DNA of 64,000 nucleotides, from assembly GCA_041571435.1 (NCBI GenBank), contig JBFFUI010000001.1, forward strand, positions 32,001 through 96,000, in the 5' to 3' direction. The stretch is from Sulfurimonadaceae bacterium. GTDB lineage: Bacteria; Campylobacterota; Campylobacteria; Campylobacterales; Sulfurimonadaceae. The first letter of the stretch is position 1. The number at the start of each line of letters is the position of its first letter. Of the stretch, positions 33,263 to 43,110 are shown one piece after another. The position numbers were made by a program, and so were the translations under genes. The notes under the pieces were generated by a model. It was not told the origin of the DNA and made no database searches. It saw only the letters and a program-made list of their open reading frames with translations.

Positions 33263-34360
33263 CTAAAAACGTTTCGTTTCTATCCCGAGCGCCTCACCTA
33301 CAGCCACATTGTGAAGCACCCCATCATAGGTATTTAAAGCCGAGACCATGACAGGCAGTTCATGACAGATGGCCTCTGCACCGTGTTGAGCCAGCGCCTT
33401 GACATACGGCAGGGTCGCGTTGGTCAGGGCATAGGTCGATGTTCTCGGATAGGCCCCCGGCATGTTTGCGACACAGTAGTGGACAACACCCTCTTCGACG
33501 AAAGTCGGTTCAGAGTGTGTCGTCGCATGCGAGCTCTCAAAGCAGCCGCCCTGGTCGATGGAGACATCCACAAGAACACTCCCCTTTTTCATCAGTTTAA
33601 GCATCTCTCTGATGACAAGTTTTGGCGCTTTGGCACCGGGTATCAGTACCGTTCCGACGACAAAATCGCACTCCGGCAGCAGCTTGGCGATCGAACCGGC
33701 CGAGCTGTACATTGTCGCAACATTGGCCGGCATGACATCGTTCAGATAACTCAGCCGTTCAAGATTGATGTCAAAAATCGTCACATCTGCACCCAGTCCC
33801 GCGGCCACCTCAGCGGCACACTTACCGGCCACCCCGCCGCCGAGCACCATCACTTTCGCACGTTCCGTTCCGACGACACCGCCGGCAAGCAGTCCAAGCC
33901 CGCCATGGTAACGGCCTAGATGCACACTCCCCATCAAAGAGGCCATCTTGCCAGCCACTTCGCTCATCGGCTCCAGCAGCGGCAGACGTCCCTTAACCGT
34001 CAGCGTCTCATACGAAAAGGCGCGTATCCCTTTTTTCAGTAAAAACCGTGTCTGCTTCTCATCGGCCGCCAGATGCAGGTAGGTGAAAAGTGTCTGATTG
34101 GGTTTGAAAAGCGCGTATTCAGACTCGATCGGCTCTTTGACCTTGACTATCATCTCTGAAAGCTCAAAGAGCTCTTCCGCCTCCAGCAGTATAGAAGCGC
34201 CCGCATCGACATACTCCCTGTCGCTAAAACCGCTTCCTTCACCCGCTCCGCTCTCCACATAGACGCTGTGGCCGGCTTTAATCAGCTCCGTCACACCGCT
34301 GGGTGTGATCGAAACCCTGTACTCATCTGTTTTGACCTCTTTTGGTACACCTATCAGCAT
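33263..34360 (-). CDS. ald: Alanine dehydrogenase
   Basis: IGVPKEVK..EYRV, KVKEP, FTYLHLAA, PMSEVAG, IDQGGCFE, YCVANMPG. Confidence 0.95.
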   Translation of the reverse strand: MLIGVPKEVKTDEYRVSITPSGVTELIKAGHSVYVESGAGEGSGFSDREYVDAGASILLEAEELFELSEMIVKVKEPIESEYALFKPNQTLFTYLHLAADEKQTRFLLKKGIRAFSYETLTVKGRLPLLEPMSEVAGKMASLMGSVHLGRYHGGLGLLAGGVVGTERAKVMVLGGGVAGKCAAEVAAGLGADVTIFDINLERLSYLNDVMPANVATMYSSAGSIAKLLPECDFVVGTVLIPGAKAPKLVIREMLKLMKKGSVLVDVSIDQGGCFESSHATTHSEPTFVEEGVVHYCVANMPGAYPRTSTYALTNATLPYVKALAQHGAEAICHELPVMVSALNTYDGVLHNVAVGEALGIETKRF

Positions 34361-34469: not shown

Positions 34470-34682
34470 TCAATAACTGCCTTCACTCATGGCGATGACA
34501 AAGTTGTCATCGACTTGGACGACATCGAATTCATGTTTGCCGCAAAAAGACTCATTGAGCTGTTGTGCCCATGCACGCGCGACGCGCAGTGCGTTTTCCT
34601 TGTCGTTGAACGTCTTGATCTGCGGCATGTTCTGACGTTTTGCACACCCACACATCTTCTCTACTACTACATGATATTCCAT
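34470..34682 (-). CDS. Small Cys/His protein (CxC...FCGxH), paralogue 1
   Basis: EKMCGCAK...FCGKHEFDVVQVDDNFVI. Confidence 0.8.
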   Translation of the reverse strand: MEYHVVVEKMCGCAKRQNMPQIKTFNDKENALRVARAWAQQLNESFCGKHEFDVVQVDDNFVIAMSEGSY

Positions 34683-34899: not shown

Positions 34900-35130
34900 T
34901 TAGATCTCACATGCCTCGACGAAGCCGCCCTCTTCGACAGAGATGACAAAATTGTCGTCCACCTCGACAATATCGAAGCCGTGTCTGCCGCAGAAATTGT
35001 TGTTGAGGGCATCCGCCCACTCGTACGCATGCTCCTCGGCATCCTCTTTTGTGTCAAATGTACGGATCTGTTCTGTCGCGTTTTTCTTGGCGCAGGCACA
35101 GAGCTTTTCAAGAACGATGTGGTGTGGCAC
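34900..35130 (-). CDS. Small Cys/His protein (CxC...FCGxH), paralogue 2
   Basis: EKLCACAK...FCGRHGFDIVEVDDNFVI; GTG start overlaps the upstream TAG. Confidence 0.8.
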   Translation of the reverse strand: MPHHIVLEKLCACAKKNATEQIRTFDTKEDAEEHAYEWADALNNNFCGRHGFDIVEVDDNFVISVEEGGFVEACEI

Positions 35131-35315
35131 TAGGAGAGCCTACTGTTTACAGAGATCAGGTAAAACTGGTCTTTGAGTTTGTTAAGCTGTTTGATGATCA
35201 GGTCATGGTGCTCATCGCTGAGAACGTAATGCTGCTCCATAAAATCGTACATCTTGTCGATGTTGGTGTACGTCTCTTTTAAAAGCTCTTCTTTGATCTT
35301 TGCTTCTACGCTCAT
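35130..35315 (-). CDS. 61-aa helical hypothetical protein
   Basis: AAGGAA RBS; translationally coupled to the downstream gene. Confidence 0.7.
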   Translation of the reverse strand: MSVEAKIKEELLKETYTNIDKMYDFMEQHYVLSDEHHDLIIKQLNKLKDQFYLISVNSRLS

Positions 35316-35377: not shown

Positions 35378-36223
35378 TCAATGCCTGTCAAAAAGACGTT
35401 GCATCTTGGCAAGATCATGCTGCGTCGAATAAAGAGGTTTTGTAGACTCCCGGCGCAGGCGCTTTTCAAAAGTCGTGCCAACGTTTTTATAAAAGAGCCC
35501 CAGTGGCATCGGCAGGGTCTCCAGCGCTTTTTGCATCGCCGCCGCCCGGTCGTTTGTGTCATGCGATGCATCCAGCCGGTACGTGTTCTCCTTGAACCAT
35601 CGATAGGTATTGACCTTGTTAAAGGTGACACAAGGCTGAAAAATATCGACCAGCGCATACCCGGGATGCAAAAATGCGGCTTTAAGCACCTCTTTCGCGT
35701 AGGCGCCGTCACCGACATTGACTCTGGAGACAAAACCGGCCTTGAGTGCCAATGCAACGGCGATCGGGTTGAAGGGTTCGTTCCCCACCCCGTCGACCTG
35801 TACCGCTGTCGTGAACCCCGGCTGGCTTGTCGGCGATGCCTGTCCTTTGGTGAGGCCGTAGACCATATTGTTATGAACGATATGGACAATGTTGACATTG
35901 CGCCGTATAGCGTGCAGGAAATGGTTTCCGCCCTCTCCGTACATGTCGCCGTCTCCGCCTTCAGCGACGACGGTCAGCTGCGGGTTGGCCGTTTTGACAG
36001 CCGTTGCGATGGGCACGGCCCTGCCATGAAGGACGCCGAACATATGGGTATCGATATAGTAAGGTGTCTTGGCAGCCTGCCCGATGCCGGAGACGATGAC
36101 CGTGTTGTTTTTGTCTACCTGCAGCTCCTCCAAAACCTCTTTGATCAGTTTCAAGATACCGAAGTTTCCACAACCCGGGCACCATGCGACATCGACGTTT
36201 TCGCGATCAAACGGATGGTTCAT
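35378..36223 (-). CDS. 2-oxoacid:ferredoxin oxidoreductase beta subunit (TPP-binding)
   Basis: WCPGCG, LHGRA, GGDGD, NNMVYGLTKGQASPT, IFQPCVTFN; ATGA overlap with alpha. Confidence 0.92.
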   Translation of the reverse strand: MNHPFDRENVDVAWCPGCGNFGILKLIKEVLEELQVDKNNTVIVSGIGQAAKTPYYIDTHMFGVLHGRAVPIATAVKTANPQLTVVAEGGDGDMYGEGGNHFLHAIRRNVNIVHIVHNNMVYGLTKGQASPTSQPGFTTAVQVDGVGNEPFNPIAVALALKAGFVSRVNVGDGAYAKEVLKAAFLHPGYALVDIFQPCVTFNKVNTYRWFKENTYRLDASHDTNDRAAAMQKALETLPMPLGLFYKNVGTTFEKRLRRESTKPLYSTQHDLAKMQRLFDRH

Positions 36224-38745
36224 GACAACTCCTTTAGCGATTTCTCTATCATACCGGTCAACTCGTCAGCAAAGAAACTGAACCCGTTGGACTGCAGGAT
36301 CCTCTCGTCTACCGTTATGTCGTGAAGCCTGAGCTGATCGCCAAAAGCGCCATCGGCACTGTTCTCGACGACAATCTTGTGTTTGTACGATTTCAAAACG
36401 CTCAGCTGCGCAGCGCTGAGCGGGTGGACCCAGGCAAAGTGGACCTGGACCAGACGCGGATCGTCCAGTCTATCCAGCGCTTCGGCGATAGCGCCTTTGG
36501 TCGAACCCCAGCCGATGACGGCAATCTCTCCGTCACCCTTGCAGACAGGCAAGACAGCCTCATTGAGGATCCCTTCATTTTTACGTGCACGTTTGGCTAC
36601 CATCTGATCCCGAATCTTGTAATCTTCGGTGATCTGCCCGCGTTCGTCATGTTCGTCACTGACGGCACAGATCAGCCCCTCGCCGAAACCCGGAACCGCT
36701 CTCGGGCTGACGCCGCTTACGGTGTCGCTGTAGCGCGCATACTCTTGTGTGCTTTTTACGATGTATCTGCGCTGTTCGTATGCGGAGAAATCGACATTGG
36801 CTGTCATCATAACGGTGTCTGCCAGGTACTGGTCACTCAAGACGATGACCGGGACCTGATATCGGTCGGCGAGTTCAAAAGCCAGATACCCGTAGTCGAT
36901 GCACTCCTGCAGCGAACCGGGGGCAAGGATCACACGGGGGAAGGGACCGTGTCCCGAGTAAAGTGCCATGTTCAGATCGCCCTGCTCGCTTCGTGTCGGC
37001 AGTCCAGTTGCAGGTCCGGGACGCTGCGCAAGATAGATGACGGCGGGCGTCTCTGTCATACCGCTGAGGCTCAATGCCTCACCCATCAGTGCAAAACCGC
37101 CGCCGGAGGTCGTTGTCATCGCACGTGCCCCTGCATACCATGCGCCCAGCACCATCGTCAACGAGGCGATCTCGTCTTCGCTCTGCTCGACGGCGATCTC
37201 AAACTCTTTTGACATCGCTGCCATAAAGTTTAATACACCGGTCGAGGGCGACATCGGGTAGGCGGTGACCATATTGCAGCCGCCGGATAAAAAGCCGAAG
37301 CCCGAAGCGGTCGTACCGTCCATGAGATGCAGCTTTTCCACCTCTTCAGGATGCGCCTCCGGCAGTGCGGGCAGCGTTGCAAAAGAGAGTCTCTCTCCCT
37401 CTTCAAGACCCGCCTCTGCCGCCTCTATGTTCGCAGGCTCCTCTTTGAAACGATCGCCGATACTGTGCAACAGGTGCTCCCCTTCCATCTTCAACAATCC
37501 GAACAGAAGACCTGCCACATAGGTGTTGGCATAACGGGCACTGCCGAGTTTCTGCACCGTGGCATGCATCGCAATCGCCTTGGCATCGGCATCACGGTCT
37601 GCAAAAGCCTCGTCTGTCAAAATTACGGTTGTTTCCGTGCATCGCCACTTTGCATGTTCCAAAGCCGCTGCATCAATGGCGATAAAAATATCGACCTCCC
37701 TGCAGGGCGCATTCACAGGCCTATTCGAGACCCTGAACAGCACCGTATTGCTGCCGCCCCGCACCCGTGACATAAACTCTTTTGTTGAAAAGGTGTAGTA
37801 ACCGCTCTGTTTAAAGGCATCATTGAGAAGCTTCTCAATCGTATCGATACCGGTTCCCGCCGCCCCGCCGATCAGAATCGCCATACTTTTCTGCTGACCC
37901 GTTCTGACGGTCTTCTCTGCTGCGCTAGAAAATTTTACAGGCGGTTCCGTCGACGGCGTGAGAAACGGTACCGCATAGTTTGCGTGCTCTGGCAGTTTCT
38001 CCGAAACAGGGGCTAAAGGTTCCGGCCTTTCGGAGTACGCATGCTCGACTTCAGGTTCCGGTTCCTCCCCCCAGGTGATCTTCCCGCCGTAATAGCCCAG
38101 AACAATGACAGTGGCACCGGTGAAGAGAACAATGCCATGGTATACGATACCTTCAAATATGGGTTCATATACGATCGAGGGATTTTCGAGGTAAAGAGTA
38201 ATACCGACGACACCCAGCAACAGCGTCAGTGTCGCGACGATCAGCTTGACAACAAAAGGACGGCTCATAGAGAGGTCGTAATTGATCCACCAGCTTAACA
38301 TTCCCGGGATCATTGCAAAAAAGCCCATGACCGTGGCCACGAAAAAGGCATAGAAGACACCGACGGCATAGGCATCTTTAGGAAGCGCAAAAAAAAGAAG
38401 ATCCAATCCCGCCGCAAAGATATGCAGCGCGATCGGAAAGTGGACAAGCATCGGATGGGGGTGGTATTTTCGATAAAGCAGCCTCAGCTTCGCTTTATAC
38501 CGCTCCATTGAAGCGGACGCCTCCTCTTCCAATACGGCAACGACCTTGAACTTCCTGAAGACCTCATCGCCGTGTGGTGCAGCGGCCAGCATCGACGTCA
38601 AATCCTGCCCTGCGCGGTGTATTTTCTGATGCTCGCCGTTTTTCCAGAGAGGGCTCTCTGTGACATCGTAGACTTTGCCTTTGTAAGCGACGTAGGCTTT
38701 CGCCCCGTCACGGCCGTCGTAACGCTTTAGTTCACCAGGTGTCAT
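36220..38745 (-). CDS. Fusion: cytochrome b5-like domain + DUF2231-like 4-TM domain + 2-oxoacid:acceptor oxidoreductase alpha subunit
   Basis: aa1-75 GKVYDVT...HRAGQDLT...APHG; aa~95-226 HPMLVHFPIAL...GYYGG; from aa288 IGGAAGTG, SRVRGG, YPMSP, EDEIAS, TTTSGGGF, QRPGPATGLPT. One uninterrupted frame. Confidence 0.88.
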   Translation of the reverse strand: MTPGELKRYDGRDGAKAYVAYKGKVYDVTESPLWKNGEHQKIHRAGQDLTSMLAAAPHGDEVFRKFKVVAVLEEEASASMERYKAKLRLLYRKYHPHPMLVHFPIALHIFAAGLDLLFFALPKDAYAVGVFYAFFVATVMGFFAMIPGMLSWWINYDLSMSRPFVVKLIVATLTLLLGVVGITLYLENPSIVYEPIFEGIVYHGIVLFTGATVIVLGYYGGKITWGEEPEPEVEHAYSERPEPLAPVSEKLPEHANYAVPFLTPSTEPPVKFSSAAEKTVRTGQQKSMAILIGGAAGTGIDTIEKLLNDAFKQSGYYTFSTKEFMSRVRGGSNTVLFRVSNRPVNAPCREVDIFIAIDAAALEHAKWRCTETTVILTDEAFADRDADAKAIAMHATVQKLGSARYANTYVAGLLFGLLKMEGEHLLHSIGDRFKEEPANIEAAEAGLEEGERLSFATLPALPEAHPEEVEKLHLMDGTTASGFGFLSGGCNMVTAYPMSPSTGVLNFMAAMSKEFEIAVEQSEDEIASLTMVLGAWYAGARAMTTTSGGGFALMGEALSLSGMTETPAVIYLAQRPGPATGLPTRSEQGDLNMALYSGHGPFPRVILAPGSLQECIDYGYLAFELADRYQVPVIVLSDQYLADTVMMTANVDFSAYEQRRYIVKSTQEYARYSDTVSGVSPRAVPGFGEGLICAVSDEHDERGQITEDYKIRDQMVAKRARKNEGILNEAVLPVCKGDGEIAVIGWGSTKGAIAEALDRLDDPRLVQVHFAWVHPLSAAQLSVLKSYKHKIVVENSADGAFGDQLRLHDITVDERILQSNGFSFFADELTGMIEKSLKELS

Positions 38746-38802
38746 CGCCTTCTCCTTCTGGTCAGAACGGGGATGGAAATCGTGCGTAAAACGTGCAGAA
38801 CG

Positions 38803-39483
38803 CTACGATGGGGTCTGCTCATGCTCCTGCATCGTATCGACATAGTCGCACACTTCGTTGTCATCGTTGCACGGCTGACTGTAGCCGGCTATCGGATCGT
38901 TCAGCACCTTCGCCAGGTTATCCGAGACGAATTCCCAGTTGACTAGTTTCCACCAGTTCTCCAGGTATTCCGGCCGGGCGTTGCGGCGGTCGATGTAGTA
39001 GGCATGTTCCCAGACATCACAGGTGAGCAGCGGCACCGTCGCTCGCCGTATCGGCGTATCGGCATTGCTGGTCTGCTCGATCGCGAGTGTGCCCTCTTTG
39101 GTGATGACCAGCCACACCCATCCCGAACCGAACAGCCCCGCAGCTGCAACCAGGAATGCTTCTCTGAACGCATCCATGGTGCCAAAATCGCGTTCGATCA
39201 TATCCGACAGCTCGACCGAAGGGGTGGTCGGCGTGGCCGACAGACTGTGCCAGTAGAAGTCGTGGTTATAGACCTGTGCGGCATTGTTGAAAATCCCGCC
39301 TTCGGCATGTTTGATGATCTCTATGAGAGACATGTCGGCAAACTTCGTGTTCTCGATAAGGCCGTTGAGTTTGTTCACATACCCGGCATGGTGTTTACCG
39401 TAGTGAAAGGAGATGGTCTCTTCGGAGATATAAGGTTCAAGCGCGTTCTGCGCATAAGGCAGTTGCATTAATTGGTGTTGCAT
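38803..39483 (-). CDS. sodB: Fe superoxide dismutase with a C-terminal Cys-containing extension
   Basis: HYGKHH, FNNAAQVYNH, FGSGW, NADTP, DVWEHAYY. Confidence 0.92.
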   Translation of the reverse strand: MQHQLMQLPYAQNALEPYISEETISFHYGKHHAGYVNKLNGLIENTKFADMSLIEIIKHAEGGIFNNAAQVYNHDFYWHSLSATPTTPSVELSDMIERDFGTMDAFREAFLVAAAGLFGSGWVWLVITKEGTLAIEQTSNADTPIRRATVPLLTCDVWEHAYYIDRRNARPEYLENWWKLVNWEFVSDNLAKVLNDPIAGYSQPCNDDNEVCDYVDTMQEHEQTPS

Positions 39484-39709
39484 CGTGTCCTCCTTGTTTT
39501 TTTTAAGCTCTACATATCATCCTACTCTCATAATTTTAAACATCTGCACAATCAAAAAAATTAGATCGAATACATAAGTAAAATCAATACTGAAAAAGAA
39601 GGGTTAGATGCTTGGTGCTGCTAAAATGGAAAAAGGAAGGGTATATAAAGGTAAAAAAAATGGTGTAAGCTGCTGCCCTCGGAGAGGACAGCATAAGAAG
39701 AATAGTTGA

Positions 39710-40000
39710 AAACTACTATTAACGAACCAGGTCGAAGAAGTAGTCAGTTGACGCGATACCTTTGGTCTCTTCGTCAAGTTGGTCAAGAACCTTGTTCGTG
39801 ATCCAAGTCAACAGGTTCAGCGCACCATCGTAGTCAACCACTACTGTAACAACTTGACGGAGACGGTCGAGCAACTCAGGCTGCACCCGCTGCAGCAGAT
39901 TGTCTTGCTCAAACCGATCAAAGCGATTGAACGCCAAGAGACCTATGAATACGGTGCCCAGGACCGCGATGCGGTTTTGGACATCCCCTATATGACCTAA
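39710..40000 (+). pseudogene. Possible decayed gene fragment
   Basis: Coding-like frame ending ...AVLDIPYMT*, interrupted by TGA at 39749, with no convincing start. Confidence 0.3.
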
Positions 40001-40020
40001 CCCAAATACAAAGGAAAACA

Positions 40021-40541
40021 ATGGATTACGAAACCCTTAAAACCGCTCTTTTAAAAGAGGCCAGAAACGCTTTTGAAATAGCATGTACAATGCGCGATAA
40101 TCAGCGTCTTGAGGTCTACCTCAAAAACGGTGAAGCAAAGATGTCAGACTGCATGGAAGAGAGTGAAGAGCTGATATACGGGCCCGACCATATCCTCTGC
40201 TATCAGGTCTATGGCCATGACTACCTTGAAGATGAGATCAAGACCTGGATCGATTACGCACGCGTGATCGAGCAGCCGGAGGATGGTATGCCGATGCCGG
40301 AGCCAACCGACATCGAGAAATCGATCCGCGAACTGATCAACGAGATCGCGCAGAGAAACGGGGTTCCGCCTGAAAGCGTCGTTCGTTCGAGGTCTTTGCA
40401 AACCTTCCGATGGACCTTCTGGGCAGTATTGAGCAGCAGATCATTGAATACTGGTGGAGCGCAAAAGAGGAAGAGAACGGCAAGAAGCTGGCACTCGAAC
40501 AGATCGACGAAGCGATCGGCCTGCCATCCCAGCAGCTGTAA
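40021..40541 (+). pseudogene. Acidic hypothetical protein with a 1-nt frameshift near 40381
   Basis: AAGGA RBS. After ...PPESV the shifted frame reads SFEVFANLPMDLLGSIEQQIIEYWW...QQL* ending at 40541, just short of the convergent gene. Confidence 0.7.
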
Positions 40542-42133: not shown

Positions 42134-42577
42134 ATGCAACACTATTCATACACTTCCAGTCGCGGCGCTTTCTCTCTGATGGAGCTTATGATCGTTATTA
42201 TCATTCTCGGTCTTTTGGCATCACTGGTACTTCCAAACCTCATGGGAACGGCGGAGAAGGCAAAACGTGATCTTGTCTGTATCCAGATGAAAGGTGTAGG
42301 TGAGGTACTTGATCGTTTCAAACTCGATAACGGCGTCTACCCGTCAACGGAAGAGGGGCTTCATGCTTTGATCGAAAACCCTAGCGAAGAGAAATATCCG
42401 GACTACGATAATCATGGCTATGTCGCCAAGAAGAACCTGCCGAAAGATTCGTGGAAAAATGAATTTGTCTACATCAATATGGGCAGTACGATCGACCTGA
42501 TCTCTCTCGGTGCCGACCGCAAAGAGGGCGGTGAAGATGATGCAAGCGACATCCGCTTCAGTGAGTGTAAGTTCTAA
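42134..42577 (+). CDS. gspG: Type II secretion major pseudopilin
   Basis: A|FSLMELMIV N-methylation site, FKLDNGVYPSTEEGLHAL, PKDSW, SLGAD..EGG...DI. Confidence 0.92.
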   Translation: MQHYSYTSSRGAFSLMELMIVIIILGLLASLVLPNLMGTAEKAKRDLVCIQMKGVGEVLDRFKLDNGVYPSTEEGLHALIENPSEEKYPDYDNHGYVAKKNLPKDSWKNEFVYINMGSTIDLISLGADRKEGGEDDASDIRFSECKF

Positions 42578-42585
42578 ACCCGGCC

Positions 42586-43110
42586 ATGCGGAAAAAGGCA
42601 TTCACCCTCATTGAGTTGCTGCTTGTTGTAGTGATCATAGGTGTTGTCTACGGTCTGGTGATCAATTCGATAAAGCATATCAACGACAAAGAGGCTGCTC
42701 TCGATTTTGAGACACTCCCCTCTTTTTTGAAGACCTTTCATCAGCGCAACGATGTCGCTTTCGTATGTATCGACAACTGCCAGCAATGTGCCGTCTATGT
42801 GGATGGCGAACAGCTAAAAGAGGTTGATGCCTTTATGAAAGATGAGCGAATGCTTCGGTTTTGGCGTTTTGATGCCAACCTGGGCATGCAGGAGCTTCGG
42901 TTTACTCCGATGTTCGATGCAGACGACAGAGCGTTTGATGTCTGTTTAAAATATGAGATTTTTAAAGACGGGAGCAGTTCAGAGATGGTCATAGAGACAC
43001 AACAAGAGAGTTACGACTATCGTGGCCTGAACCATAAAGTCGACCGCTACTCTTCGCTCCAGACACTCGAAAGCAGTCGCCAGGATGAGCTTCAGGAGGT
43101 GTTGCAATGA
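42586..43110 (+). CDS. Minor pseudopilin (GspH-like)
   Basis: KKA|FTLIELLLV prepilin motif. Confidence 0.75.
   Translation: MRKKAFTLIELLLVVVIIGVVYGLVINSIKHINDKEAALDFETLPSFLKTFHQRNDVAFVCIDNCQQCAVYVDGEQLKEVDAFMKDERMLRFWRFDANLGMQELRFTPMFDADDRAFDVCLKYEIFKDGSSSEMVIETQQESYDYRGLNHKVDRYSSLQTLESSRQDELQEVLQ

Follow-up and report, generated by a model that had tools for sequence, protein, structure and literature searches.

The window analysed here is a stretch of 64,000 nucleotides (nt) from a Sulfurimonadaceae bacterium (GenBank assembly GCA_041571435.1, contig JBFFUI010000001.1, positions 32,001–96,000), and all coordinates are counted from its start. On its reverse strand, a gene at 36220..38745 encodes an 841-residue protein in which a haem domain of the cytochrome b5M type (a MAPR-like prokaryotic b5), a DUF2231 membrane domain and, beyond a linker, the alpha subunit of a 2-oxoacid:ferredoxin oxidoreductase (OFOR) are joined in one chain. 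This fused alpha gene stands between a gene for an iron-type superoxide dismutase (SOD) and the gene for the OFOR beta subunit. We propose that the three genes form one unit encoding an OFOR for conditions of oxygen exposure, in which electrons drawn from a 2-oxoacid would be passed to the built-in haem and from there to the membrane, most likely to menaquinone, bypassing ferredoxin; we hold this proposal with slightly less than even confidence.

OFORs are ancient, oxygen-labile enzymes, central to anaerobic carbon metabolism and CO2 fixation, and to our knowledge every characterised member hands its electrons to soluble ferredoxin or flavodoxin. Public records label the fused protein only as "2-oxoacid:acceptor oxidoreductase subunit alpha". 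An earlier note on this DNA had named no characterised enzyme of such architecture, and no description of a b5M–DUF2231–OFOR fusion was found in the literature that was searched (subscription journals lay outside its scope).

One gene encodes the three-part alpha chain

Four Pfam domains scored above their gathering cut-offs in the 841-residue open reading frame (ORF): Cyt-b5 at residues 3–66 (26.5 bits against 23.7), DUF2231 (PF09990) at residues 97–225 (43.3 against 26.4), POR at residues 296–448 (79.8 against 27.4) and POR_N at residues 486–717 (181 against 27). The single frame in three parts that the earlier note had described is thus borne out. AAGGAG lies 7 nt 5′ of the start codon, the alpha stop and the beta start overlap as ATGA, and AAGGAG is again found upstream of the beta start, in agreement with the translational coupling of beta put forward in the note. 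As was also noted there, the internal Met288 (37882–37884) is not preceded by a Shine–Dalgarno sequence, and I, L or V occupies its position in 99 of 118 aligned sequences. These gene signals fit a single polypeptide. The note had further suggested that the assembly be checked across the domain junction. The region 36100–39600 is spanned, with no indels and no joints, by contigs of four sequencing runs, several of which bridge the junction; the runs belong to a single study that may be the source of the assembly, and the contigs are not independent support.

The haem domain is a cytochrome b5M

The N-terminal domain (residues 1–75; 38521..38745, reverse strand) was assigned by homology to Protein Data Bank (PDB) entries and by fold. 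Its alignments to the crystallised, haem-bound cytochromes b5M 6NZX and 6VZ6 were gapless over 71–72 residues (residues 2–72; phmmer E = 3.3e-21 for 6nzx_A and 7.6e-21 for 6vz6_A), with 55–57% identity and no MAPR-specific insertion. The modelled domain superposed on both structures with template modelling scores (TM-scores) of 0.90–0.91 and root mean square deviations of 0.9–1.0 Å (Foldseek), against a TM-score of about 0.6 for classical b5. The cytochrome b5-like domain of the earlier note can accordingly be refined to a b5M.

In the report on 6VZ6, the haem has H42 and H61 as axial ligands, S34 forms a hydrogen bond and H46 is in contact (10.1101/2021.11.30.470528). These four residues align with H39, H58, S31 and H43 of the fused protein, so that the predicted axial ligands are H39 in the motif GEHQ (38629–38631, reverse strand) and H58 in the motif APHG (38572–38574, reverse strand). 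The pair proposed in the earlier note was half right: the His of APHG stands, while the His of HRAGQD is H43, which would only contact the haem, its place as axial partner being taken by H39. None of H39, H58 and S31 varies among 118 fused homologues, and in the wider b5M–DUF2231 family H39 is present in 65 of 65 sequences and H58 in 64 of 65. We infer from these alignments that the domain binds haem b. The cytochromes b5M of Hadesarchaea (6NZX) and Methanococcoides burtonii (6VZ6) share the axial His pair and the hydrogen-bonding Ser; in the accessible text of the two reports (10.1101/2021.11.17.468889, 10.1101/2021.11.30.470528) they are soluble proteins of about 8 kDa that stand alone, whereas here the domain forms the N-terminus of a membrane-bound enzyme.

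The membrane domain places haem and enzyme core on the cytoplasmic face

A basic helix (residues 78–94; 38464..38514, reverse strand), present in both structure models, connects the haem domain to the first transmembrane (TM) helix. The DUF2231 domain that follows (residues 95–226; 38068..38463, reverse strand) is defined by PF09990 and by a model of residues 1–240 with a predicted local distance difference test score (pLDDT) of 91 and a predicted TM-score of 0.74. Beyond the basic helix the model has four long helices (97–120, 124–156, 162–187 and 197–225), confirming the four-helix membrane domain of the earlier note. Over 118 sequences, the mean number of Lys plus Arg is 4.7 before TM1 (residues 77–98), 0.8 in loop 1, 2.3 in loop 2, 0.1 in loop 3 and 2.9 after TM4, and loop 3 carries a mean of 2.1 Asp plus Glu. 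By the positive-inside rule these counts give an N-in/C-in topology, and therefore the haem domain and the OFOR core share the cytoplasmic face, as the note had reasoned.

Conservation within DUF2231 is concentrated in the motif H95-x-H97-P-x3-H102-F-P together with W152, Y156, K167 and G220, all of which sit at the cytoplasmic face by this topology. Across 65 sequences, stand-alone relatives included, H95 is kept in 58, H97 in 65, H102 in 64, W152 in 61, Y156 in 62, K167 in 64 and G220 in 65. H102 is the only conserved His of the TM segments, and 34 of the 65 sequences have a single TM His; the four conserved TM His of a classical di-haem anchor are absent from this alignment, so DUF2231 cannot be counted as a classical di-haem b anchor. 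Within the fused clade (118 sequences) H203 is invariant and H108 is at least 90% conserved, a pair that was considered as a possible second haem site and is found in 2 of 65 sequences of the wider family. A search of the ESM Atlas with the DUF2231 part returned no usable match, and within the searched literature the term "DUF2231" was mentioned only by a cysteine database.

The linker (residues 227–286; 37888..38067, reverse strand) is rich in Pro and Glu and is probably disordered, with low pLDDT (below 50 for residues 227–250 in a full-length model whose mean is 85.7) and low identity. Its length in homologues varies from 27 to 79 residues, and about half of the sequences have a semi-conserved Y-E-V-P-F patch. 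Compared with the query, median identity is 13% in the linker, 64% in b5M, 65% in DUF2231, 52% in OFOR domain III and 72% in OFOR domains I–II; judged by these alignments, the b5M and DUF2231 domains are constrained to the same degree as the enzyme core.

The catalytic core is a two-subunit OFOR with a three-Cys cluster site

The C-terminal part of the fused protein (residues 287–841; 36223..37887, reverse strand, stop codon at 36220–36222) has the domain order III-I-II of a two-subunit OFOR alpha. Residues 288–830 scored 561.2 bits with the NCBIfam model for this subunit (TIGR03710, cut-off 482.75), so the complete alpha claimed in the earlier note is present, and the gamma-type POR domain lies within the chain (residues 296–448). 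The best PDB matches were 6n2n_A (E = 2e-66) and 5b46_A (E = 3.7e-64). The beta subunit (281 residues; 35378..36223, reverse strand), which carries the thiamine pyrophosphate (TPP) and Fe–S cluster sites, scored 339.7 bits with TIGR02177 (cut-off 261.9, NCBIfam), and the only Pfam domains in it are TPP_enzyme_C and PFO_beta_C. GDG...NN in beta and a YPITP-type sequence in alpha are OFOR motifs. The first is found as G90-D91-G92 and N118-N119, invariant in 21 sequences, and the second as the variant Y496-P-M-S-P-S501, invariant in 118.

The beta subunit has only three Cys (C15, C18 and C198), fewer than the four-Cys ligand set of a [4Fe–4S] cluster. In place of the third cluster Cys stands Gln49 (36077–36079), in SGIGQ where 5b48_B, 5b46_B, 6n2n_B and 8ys5_C have SGIGC. 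The same Gln was found in 21 of 21 betas of the clade and in all 120 of a set of homologues centred on Desulfurella, 141 of 141 in total, from Campylobacterota, Thermococcus, Methanococcus, Desulfuromonas, Flexistipes, Planctomycetota and others. A clade-specific adaptation to oxygen was considered and ruled out, as the 120 betas come from diverse anaerobes. The three-Cys site is thus, by comparison of sequences, a trait of a large OFOR subfamily that has no solved structure and not of the fusion.

For the substrate, fused alpha and beta passed no NCBIfam equivalog cut-off, and the hints from gene context conflict. Pyruvate is suggested by an alanine dehydrogenase gene (33263–34360) downstream of beta, here and in three relatives, and by a gene for an 831-residue protein resembling phosphoenolpyruvate (PEP) synthase/pyruvate phosphate dikinase (L105 3960–6455) directly 5′ of the split genes of the related genome G365 (described below; G, L and P numbers are our own labels). 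2-Oxoglutarate is suggested by an aconitase gene in a Desulfurella cluster, also described below.

Three OFOR alpha genes in the genome scored above the Pfam cut-off. The OorA-like and PorA-like genes each have an adjacent Fer4 ORF; the SOD–alpha–beta unit has none, the nearest Fer4 match on contig C1 lying about 50 kb from the fused gene, which upholds the absence of a nearby ferredoxin or delta gene reported in the earlier note. Flavodoxin_1 had no match in the genome.

The fusion recurs and has natural variants

PF09990, PF01558 and PF01855 occur in one chain in 117 of the 120 best clusters of proteins at 90% identity. Of these, 116 are 808–888 residues long and one is a partial sequence of 729 residues; identity goes down to 48%, many lie on long or complete contigs, and the source names include Sulfurimonas, Sulfuricurvum, Sulfurovum, Thiovulaceae, Arcobacteraceae and Thiomicrolovo. 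An uninterrupted full-length match was present in 8 of 41 related genomes. When 301 genomes were sampled evenly from the order, the module formed by b5M and DUF2231 was found in 13, in 10 of them within frames of at least 794 residues and in 3 within frames of 226–254 residues. When the family was sampled, 75 of 301 genomes had an alpha homologue at E <= 1e-60. By the length of the open frame, 38 of these are fused, 22 have frames of 566–628 residues (genus g29), 3 lack the module and 1 lacks the membrane domain; the rest comprise 9 partial sequences, 1 distant one and 1 that a contig end leaves unresolved.

In the split form, exemplified by G365, module (232 residues), alpha (559 residues) and beta are separate genes with 4-nt overlaps, and the linker of the fused form is absent. 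G191 and L017 (a Sulfurovum MAG, that is, a metagenome-assembled genome) are split in the same manner, L020 is also split by its frame lengths and ORFs, and G229 has the gene order of G365 in separate frames. In genus g29 the module gene lies directly 5′ of alpha in all seven genomes examined, in one of which it is cut by the contig end. A membrane-less form was found in G411 (P0100; L104), where b5M is joined to alpha by a short linker without DUF2231, and module-less forms consisting of alpha and beta only in G309, G400 and G534. The earlier note had considered that the fusion might be unique to this assembly, with two separate genes in relatives. The first part does not hold; the second does for some relatives, which points to natural fusion and fission and not to an artefact of stop loss.

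When 29 alpha cores were placed on a tree, the forms lacking the module or the membrane domain branched within fused clades (support 100/99), which makes them secondary losses, and split and fused clades interleaved. The tree of modules groups all OFOR-associated modules of Campylobacterales in a single clade (91/80), and its sub-clades match those of the alpha tree. From the shared sub-clades and the interleaving, the association of module and OFOR is old, co-inherited and repeatedly fused or split. The four forms, from fused to module-less, amount to a natural experimental panel.

The module also occurs by itself and in other fusions

Residues 1–240 were searched against 1.84 billion representative proteins, giving 1679 matches at E <= 1e-3; 81 of them reached E <= 1e-30. 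The best 150 are mostly stand-alone proteins of about 215–260 residues, aligned end to end. These share 30–48% identity with the fused module and a common His/Trp/Tyr/Lys set; they differ from it in having no enzyme fusion and in usually lying beside genes of the UbiA and UbiE families. Among the best 80 of 502 genomic matches, about a dozen come from Campylobacterota and the rest mostly from anaerobes, including Desulfobacterota-type MAGs, Syntrophia, Desulfurella, Deferribacterales, Thermotogota, Chloroflexi and Nitrospirota.

For 69 stand-alone loci, three genes on either side were inspected after crude ORF calling. A gene of the UbiA family adjoins the module in 26 of these, at a median gap of 34 nt; genes like class II fumarase/aspartase lie nearby in 16, MenG/UbiE-family methyltransferases in 14 and Redoxin/AhpC-TSA in 4. 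Further chains join the module to a UbiA prenyltransferase (P0256), to an N-terminal Flavin_Reduct domain (P0182), to a fifth TM helix followed by a CxxCH cytochrome c domain (P0154) or to a Response_reg receiver (P0241). Proteins with b5M but other partners are P0125 and P0126, which are arrays of four to six b5M domains, and P0410 and P0448, in which b5M is joined to a CopD-family domain. A word-limited search that scored 96 candidates and 90 hits showed no b5M fused to an OFOR beta subunit. The Flavin_Reduct and cytochrome c fusions would be expected if the module transferred electrons in the membrane and received them from the cytoplasm, and they point to such a role, and the adjacency and fusion to UbiA, together with the MenG/UbiE neighbours, hint at a quinone as acceptor.

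Superoxide dismutase and the oxygen-stress neighbourhood

The first gene of the unit (38803..39483, reverse strand) lies 57 nt 5′ of the fused gene and encodes a 226-residue protein with the Pfam domains Sod_Fe_N and Sod_Fe_C; its best NCBIfam model is that of Fe-SOD, at 258 bits and below the cut-off of 348. The SOD gene is preceded by an AAGGAGG of its own and by AT-rich DNA, and in the gap to the fused gene no site resembling a terminator was predicted.

SOD is present in 19 of 27 related loci, counted after merging two pairs of identical contigs, with further overlap between MAG contigs and genomes possible. In most it lies upstream of the fused or split genes, and in G365 and G384 it is downstream and convergent. 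It accompanies the module without an OFOR in G206 and the OFOR without a module in G534; it is not in the locus in G038, L016, L018, L021, G228, G411, G309 and G400. Among 41 relatives SOD was found in 17, namely in all 8 that carry the fused gene and in 9 of the 33 that lack it, a comparison that is only indicative as the genomes are kin. The earlier note did not include the SOD linkage, which is the strongest support for that note's idea that O2 is involved.

In Desulfurella acetivorans A63 (CP007051), a stand-alone module of 44% identity lies four genes 5′ of OFOR alpha and beta on the same strand. The gene order there (L055 3239–10947) is aconitase (917 residues), module, rubrerythrin-like (88 residues), lipoprotein (Lipoprotein_15), AhpC/TSA (156 residues), rubrerythrin/ferritin-like (164 residues), alpha and beta, and the cluster looks like a stress-hardened segment of the tricarboxylic acid (TCA) cycle.

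Several features of the SOD region were noted in passing. A C-terminal tail of about 30 residues (197–226; 38806–38895) extends beyond the Fe-SOD profile (residues 1–191) and contains two Cys as C-x7-C, which are kept in relatives, including the convergent copy of G365. In G206 the stand-alone b5M–DUF2231 gene is directly followed by SOD (L098 7223–8530). A stretch of 117 nt 5′ of SOD is 80–95% identical across relatives; neither a tRNA nor an Rfam match was found, and the stretch is the 3′ end of a 100-residue ORF (39719–40021, reverse strand) with no Pfam match. A terminator-like hairpin (about 39670–39700) and a run of T follow this ORF upstream of SOD.

Proposed function and alternatives

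According to the scheme we favour, the alpha–beta core would oxidise a 2-oxoacid with CoA, pyruvate and 2-oxoglutarate being the candidate substrates. Electrons would leave through the single Fe–S cluster of beta and reduce the bis-His haem of the tethered b5M on the cytoplasmic face, in place of a soluble low-potential ferredoxin. From the haem they would reach the conserved cytoplasmic-face site of DUF2231 and then the membrane, most likely menaquinone, while the SOD encoded in the same unit would remove the superoxide that a low-potential enzyme forms when oxygen is present. We infer the direction of electron flow, the haem as physiological acceptor and the final acceptor. The earlier note had likewise suggested that electrons may pass to haem and on to quinone or O2, or that the haem may gate the enzyme. 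A complex prediction with alpha 286–841, beta, haem and b5M 1–76, run without controls, scored 0.00 against a mark of 0.32 and speaks neither for nor against the scheme.

Several observations weigh against this scheme. Close orthologues lack the module (G309, G400 and G534), so that it is dispensable and the core must be able to use a different acceptor as well; G411 shows that the membrane domain, too, can be dispensed with. In G206 the module and SOD occur, but the 15 kb retrieved contain no OFOR, so the partner of the module need not be an OFOR. DUF2231 has no known cofactor, and the search with its fold returned only generic four-helix bundles and no specific relative (de novo designs with Z up to 12.9, CcmF at 10.9 and a b6f subunit at 10.1). 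The UbiA-family neighbour is divergent (80 bits against a cut-off of 180.8) and its PDB match is weak. No energy would be conserved if electrons at about −500 mV were handed to menaquinone. Lastly, the stress-gene neighbours fit a role directed at O2 or reactive oxygen species (ROS) at least as well as they fit quinone reduction.

A bolder form of the proposal would make this the first membrane-wired OFOR, a ferredoxin-independent 2-oxoacid:menaquinone (or 2-oxoacid:O2) oxidoreductase. The three-Cys cluster would feed b5M, DUF2231 would be a new and widespread family of membrane redox modules to which reductases on the cytoplasmic side (OFOR, flavin reductase) and cytochromes on the periplasmic side would connect, and the whole would act with SOD as a bypass under oxygen exposure. 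Taken in full, this is a tentative and rather doubtful extension.

A possible alternative, which we regard as somewhat improbable, is that the haem and DUF2231 pass OFOR electrons to O2 or ROS, either at the His-rich face or through partner peroxidases. Oxidation of the 2-oxoacid would then power local removal of O2 and peroxide, protecting oxygen-labile enzymes, and SOD would complete the chain. This and the membrane or quinone exit differ in the final acceptor only. The SOD linkage speaks for such a sink, including the loci with SOD and module but no OFOR (G206) and with SOD and OFOR but no module (G534), as do the rubrerythrin-like and AhpC/TSA genes around module and OFOR pair in Desulfurella and the Redoxin/AhpC-TSA (4 of 69) and class II fumarase-like (16 of 69) genes near stand-alone modules; in addition, a metal could be bound at the membrane face by the H-x-H...H motif together with Y156 and K167. 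A need for protection has a precedent in Campylobacter jejuni, where the available part of one report describes Por and Oor as having labile 4Fe–4S centres that hemerythrins help to protect (PMC4257069). Arguing the other way, no metal or oxidase motif was recognised in DUF2231 by Pfam or by fold search, and stand-alone modules are found mostly in strict-anaerobe lineages, beside UbiA/UbiE-type and not stress genes. A bis-His, six-coordinate haem is moreover an electron carrier and not a site of O2 binding, and the reaction of Fe-SOD needs no electron donor.

That the haem acts as a sensor or guard is unlikely. On this account it would report or buffer the redox or O2 state and switch the OFOR off or keep its cluster reduced, the membrane part serving for localisation only. 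The SOD linkage is compatible with such a role, as are the fusion to a receiver domain (P0241) and the module-less orthologues, in which catalysis does not need the module. A receiver, however, usually controls an output domain and does not mark a sensor, the Flavin_Reduct and cytochrome c fusions resemble electron-transfer chains, and the face residues of DUF2231 are conserved like the catalytic core, which mere anchoring would not require.

We consider it very unlikely that the system runs in reverse, with the membrane potential driving electrons through the module into the OFOR for CO2 fixation without ferredoxin in autotrophs that use the reverse TCA cycle. In favour of this reading, the closest solved alpha, 6n2n_A, presumably belongs to a CO2-fixing 2-oxoglutarate:ferredoxin oxidoreductase (OGOR), the genome has both canonical OFORs expected for the reverse TCA cycle, and the PEP synthase-like gene lies 5′ of the split form in G365. 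The gap from quinol or b-haem to about −500 mV, however, far exceeds what one membrane crossing can supply; the module occurs in only 13 of the 301 sampled genomes of the order and so is no general solution; and the predicted co-expression with SOD points to oxic conditions, in which oxidation is favoured. Finally, a lost stop codon or misassembly that joined two genes, for which the split versions in some relatives might be cited, is refuted by the 117 of 120 clusters fused down to 48% identity, the uninterrupted matches in 8 of 41 relatives and the family sample, to which the contigs without indels (though not independent) and a linker that is a real insertion, absent from split forms, may be added.

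Relation to known enzymes

Solved two-subunit OFORs, namely 6n2n, which we take to be the Magnetococcus marinus OGOR, and Sulfolobus tokodaii StOFOR1/2 (5b46, 5b48), share with the present enzyme the III-I-II alpha, the TPP/Fe–S beta and the lack of a delta ferredoxin domain; matches ranged from E = 2e-66 to 3e-59 for alpha and from 3.5e-62 to 1.5e-59 for beta. The present enzyme differs from them in about 286 additional N-terminal residues, the Gln in place of the third Cys of beta, the lack of a near ferredoxin gene and the SOD in the unit. The four-subunit Por/Oor enzymes of Campylobacterota belong to the same phylum and reaction class but have separate alpha, beta, gamma and Fer4 delta subunits, whereas the unit here has no separate gamma gene and no Fer4 delta. 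Their hemerythrin guard, as far as the accessible text describes it, offers a precedent for an accessory protein, although it is a separate non-haem di-iron protein and not a fused haem domain (PMC4257069).

Tethered b5-type domains are known from other enzymes. Flavocytochrome b2, sulfite oxidase and assimilatory nitrate reductase have a built-in b5-type domain as first electron acceptor, and they likewise use a flexible hinge to a b5-fold haem domain, which here too would shuttle single electrons; 1fcb was a weak fold match. These enzymes are soluble, have flavin or molybdenum centres and a classical b5, and none is a TPP/Fe–S OFOR. A functional likeness is possible with PoxB/PQO, in which TPP-dependent 2-oxoacid decarboxylation delivers electrons to membrane quinone without ferredoxin or NAD. 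PoxB, however, is a flavoprotein of another TPP family that makes acetate and not acyl-CoA, has no Fe–S cluster or haem and binds the membrane peripherally, and the PoxB-type Pfam domains TPP_enzyme_N and TPP_enzyme_M were found in neither the fused alpha nor beta.

If the proposal is right, the OFOR class would gain a new electron exit, conserved together with SOD in sulfur-oxidising Campylobacterota, and a testable mechanism would be at hand for the oxygen tolerance of organisms that use the reverse TCA cycle. In the bolder form of the proposal, the bypass would keep the 2-oxoacid metabolism of such sulfur oxidisers running at oxic–anoxic interfaces. A new exit of this kind would also be the first clue to the function of two unstudied families, DUF2231 and cytochrome b5M, the latter known from crystal structures alone.

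Other features of the region

Between beta and the alanine dehydrogenase gene lie three small ORFs of 70, 76 and 61 residues (34470–34682, 34900–35130 and 35130–35315, reverse strand), none with a Pfam match. Two of them are paralogues with a C-x-C...C pattern, and all three are conserved downstream in G002, G013, G004, G006 and G132. On the other side of the unit are tandem paralogous acyltransferase genes (PF01553; 40547–41227 and 41289–41969, reverse strand), each encoding 226 residues. On the forward strand, the translated N-termini of two ORFs (42134–42577 and 42586–43110) resemble a prepilin or pseudopilin leader followed by a hydrophobic segment.

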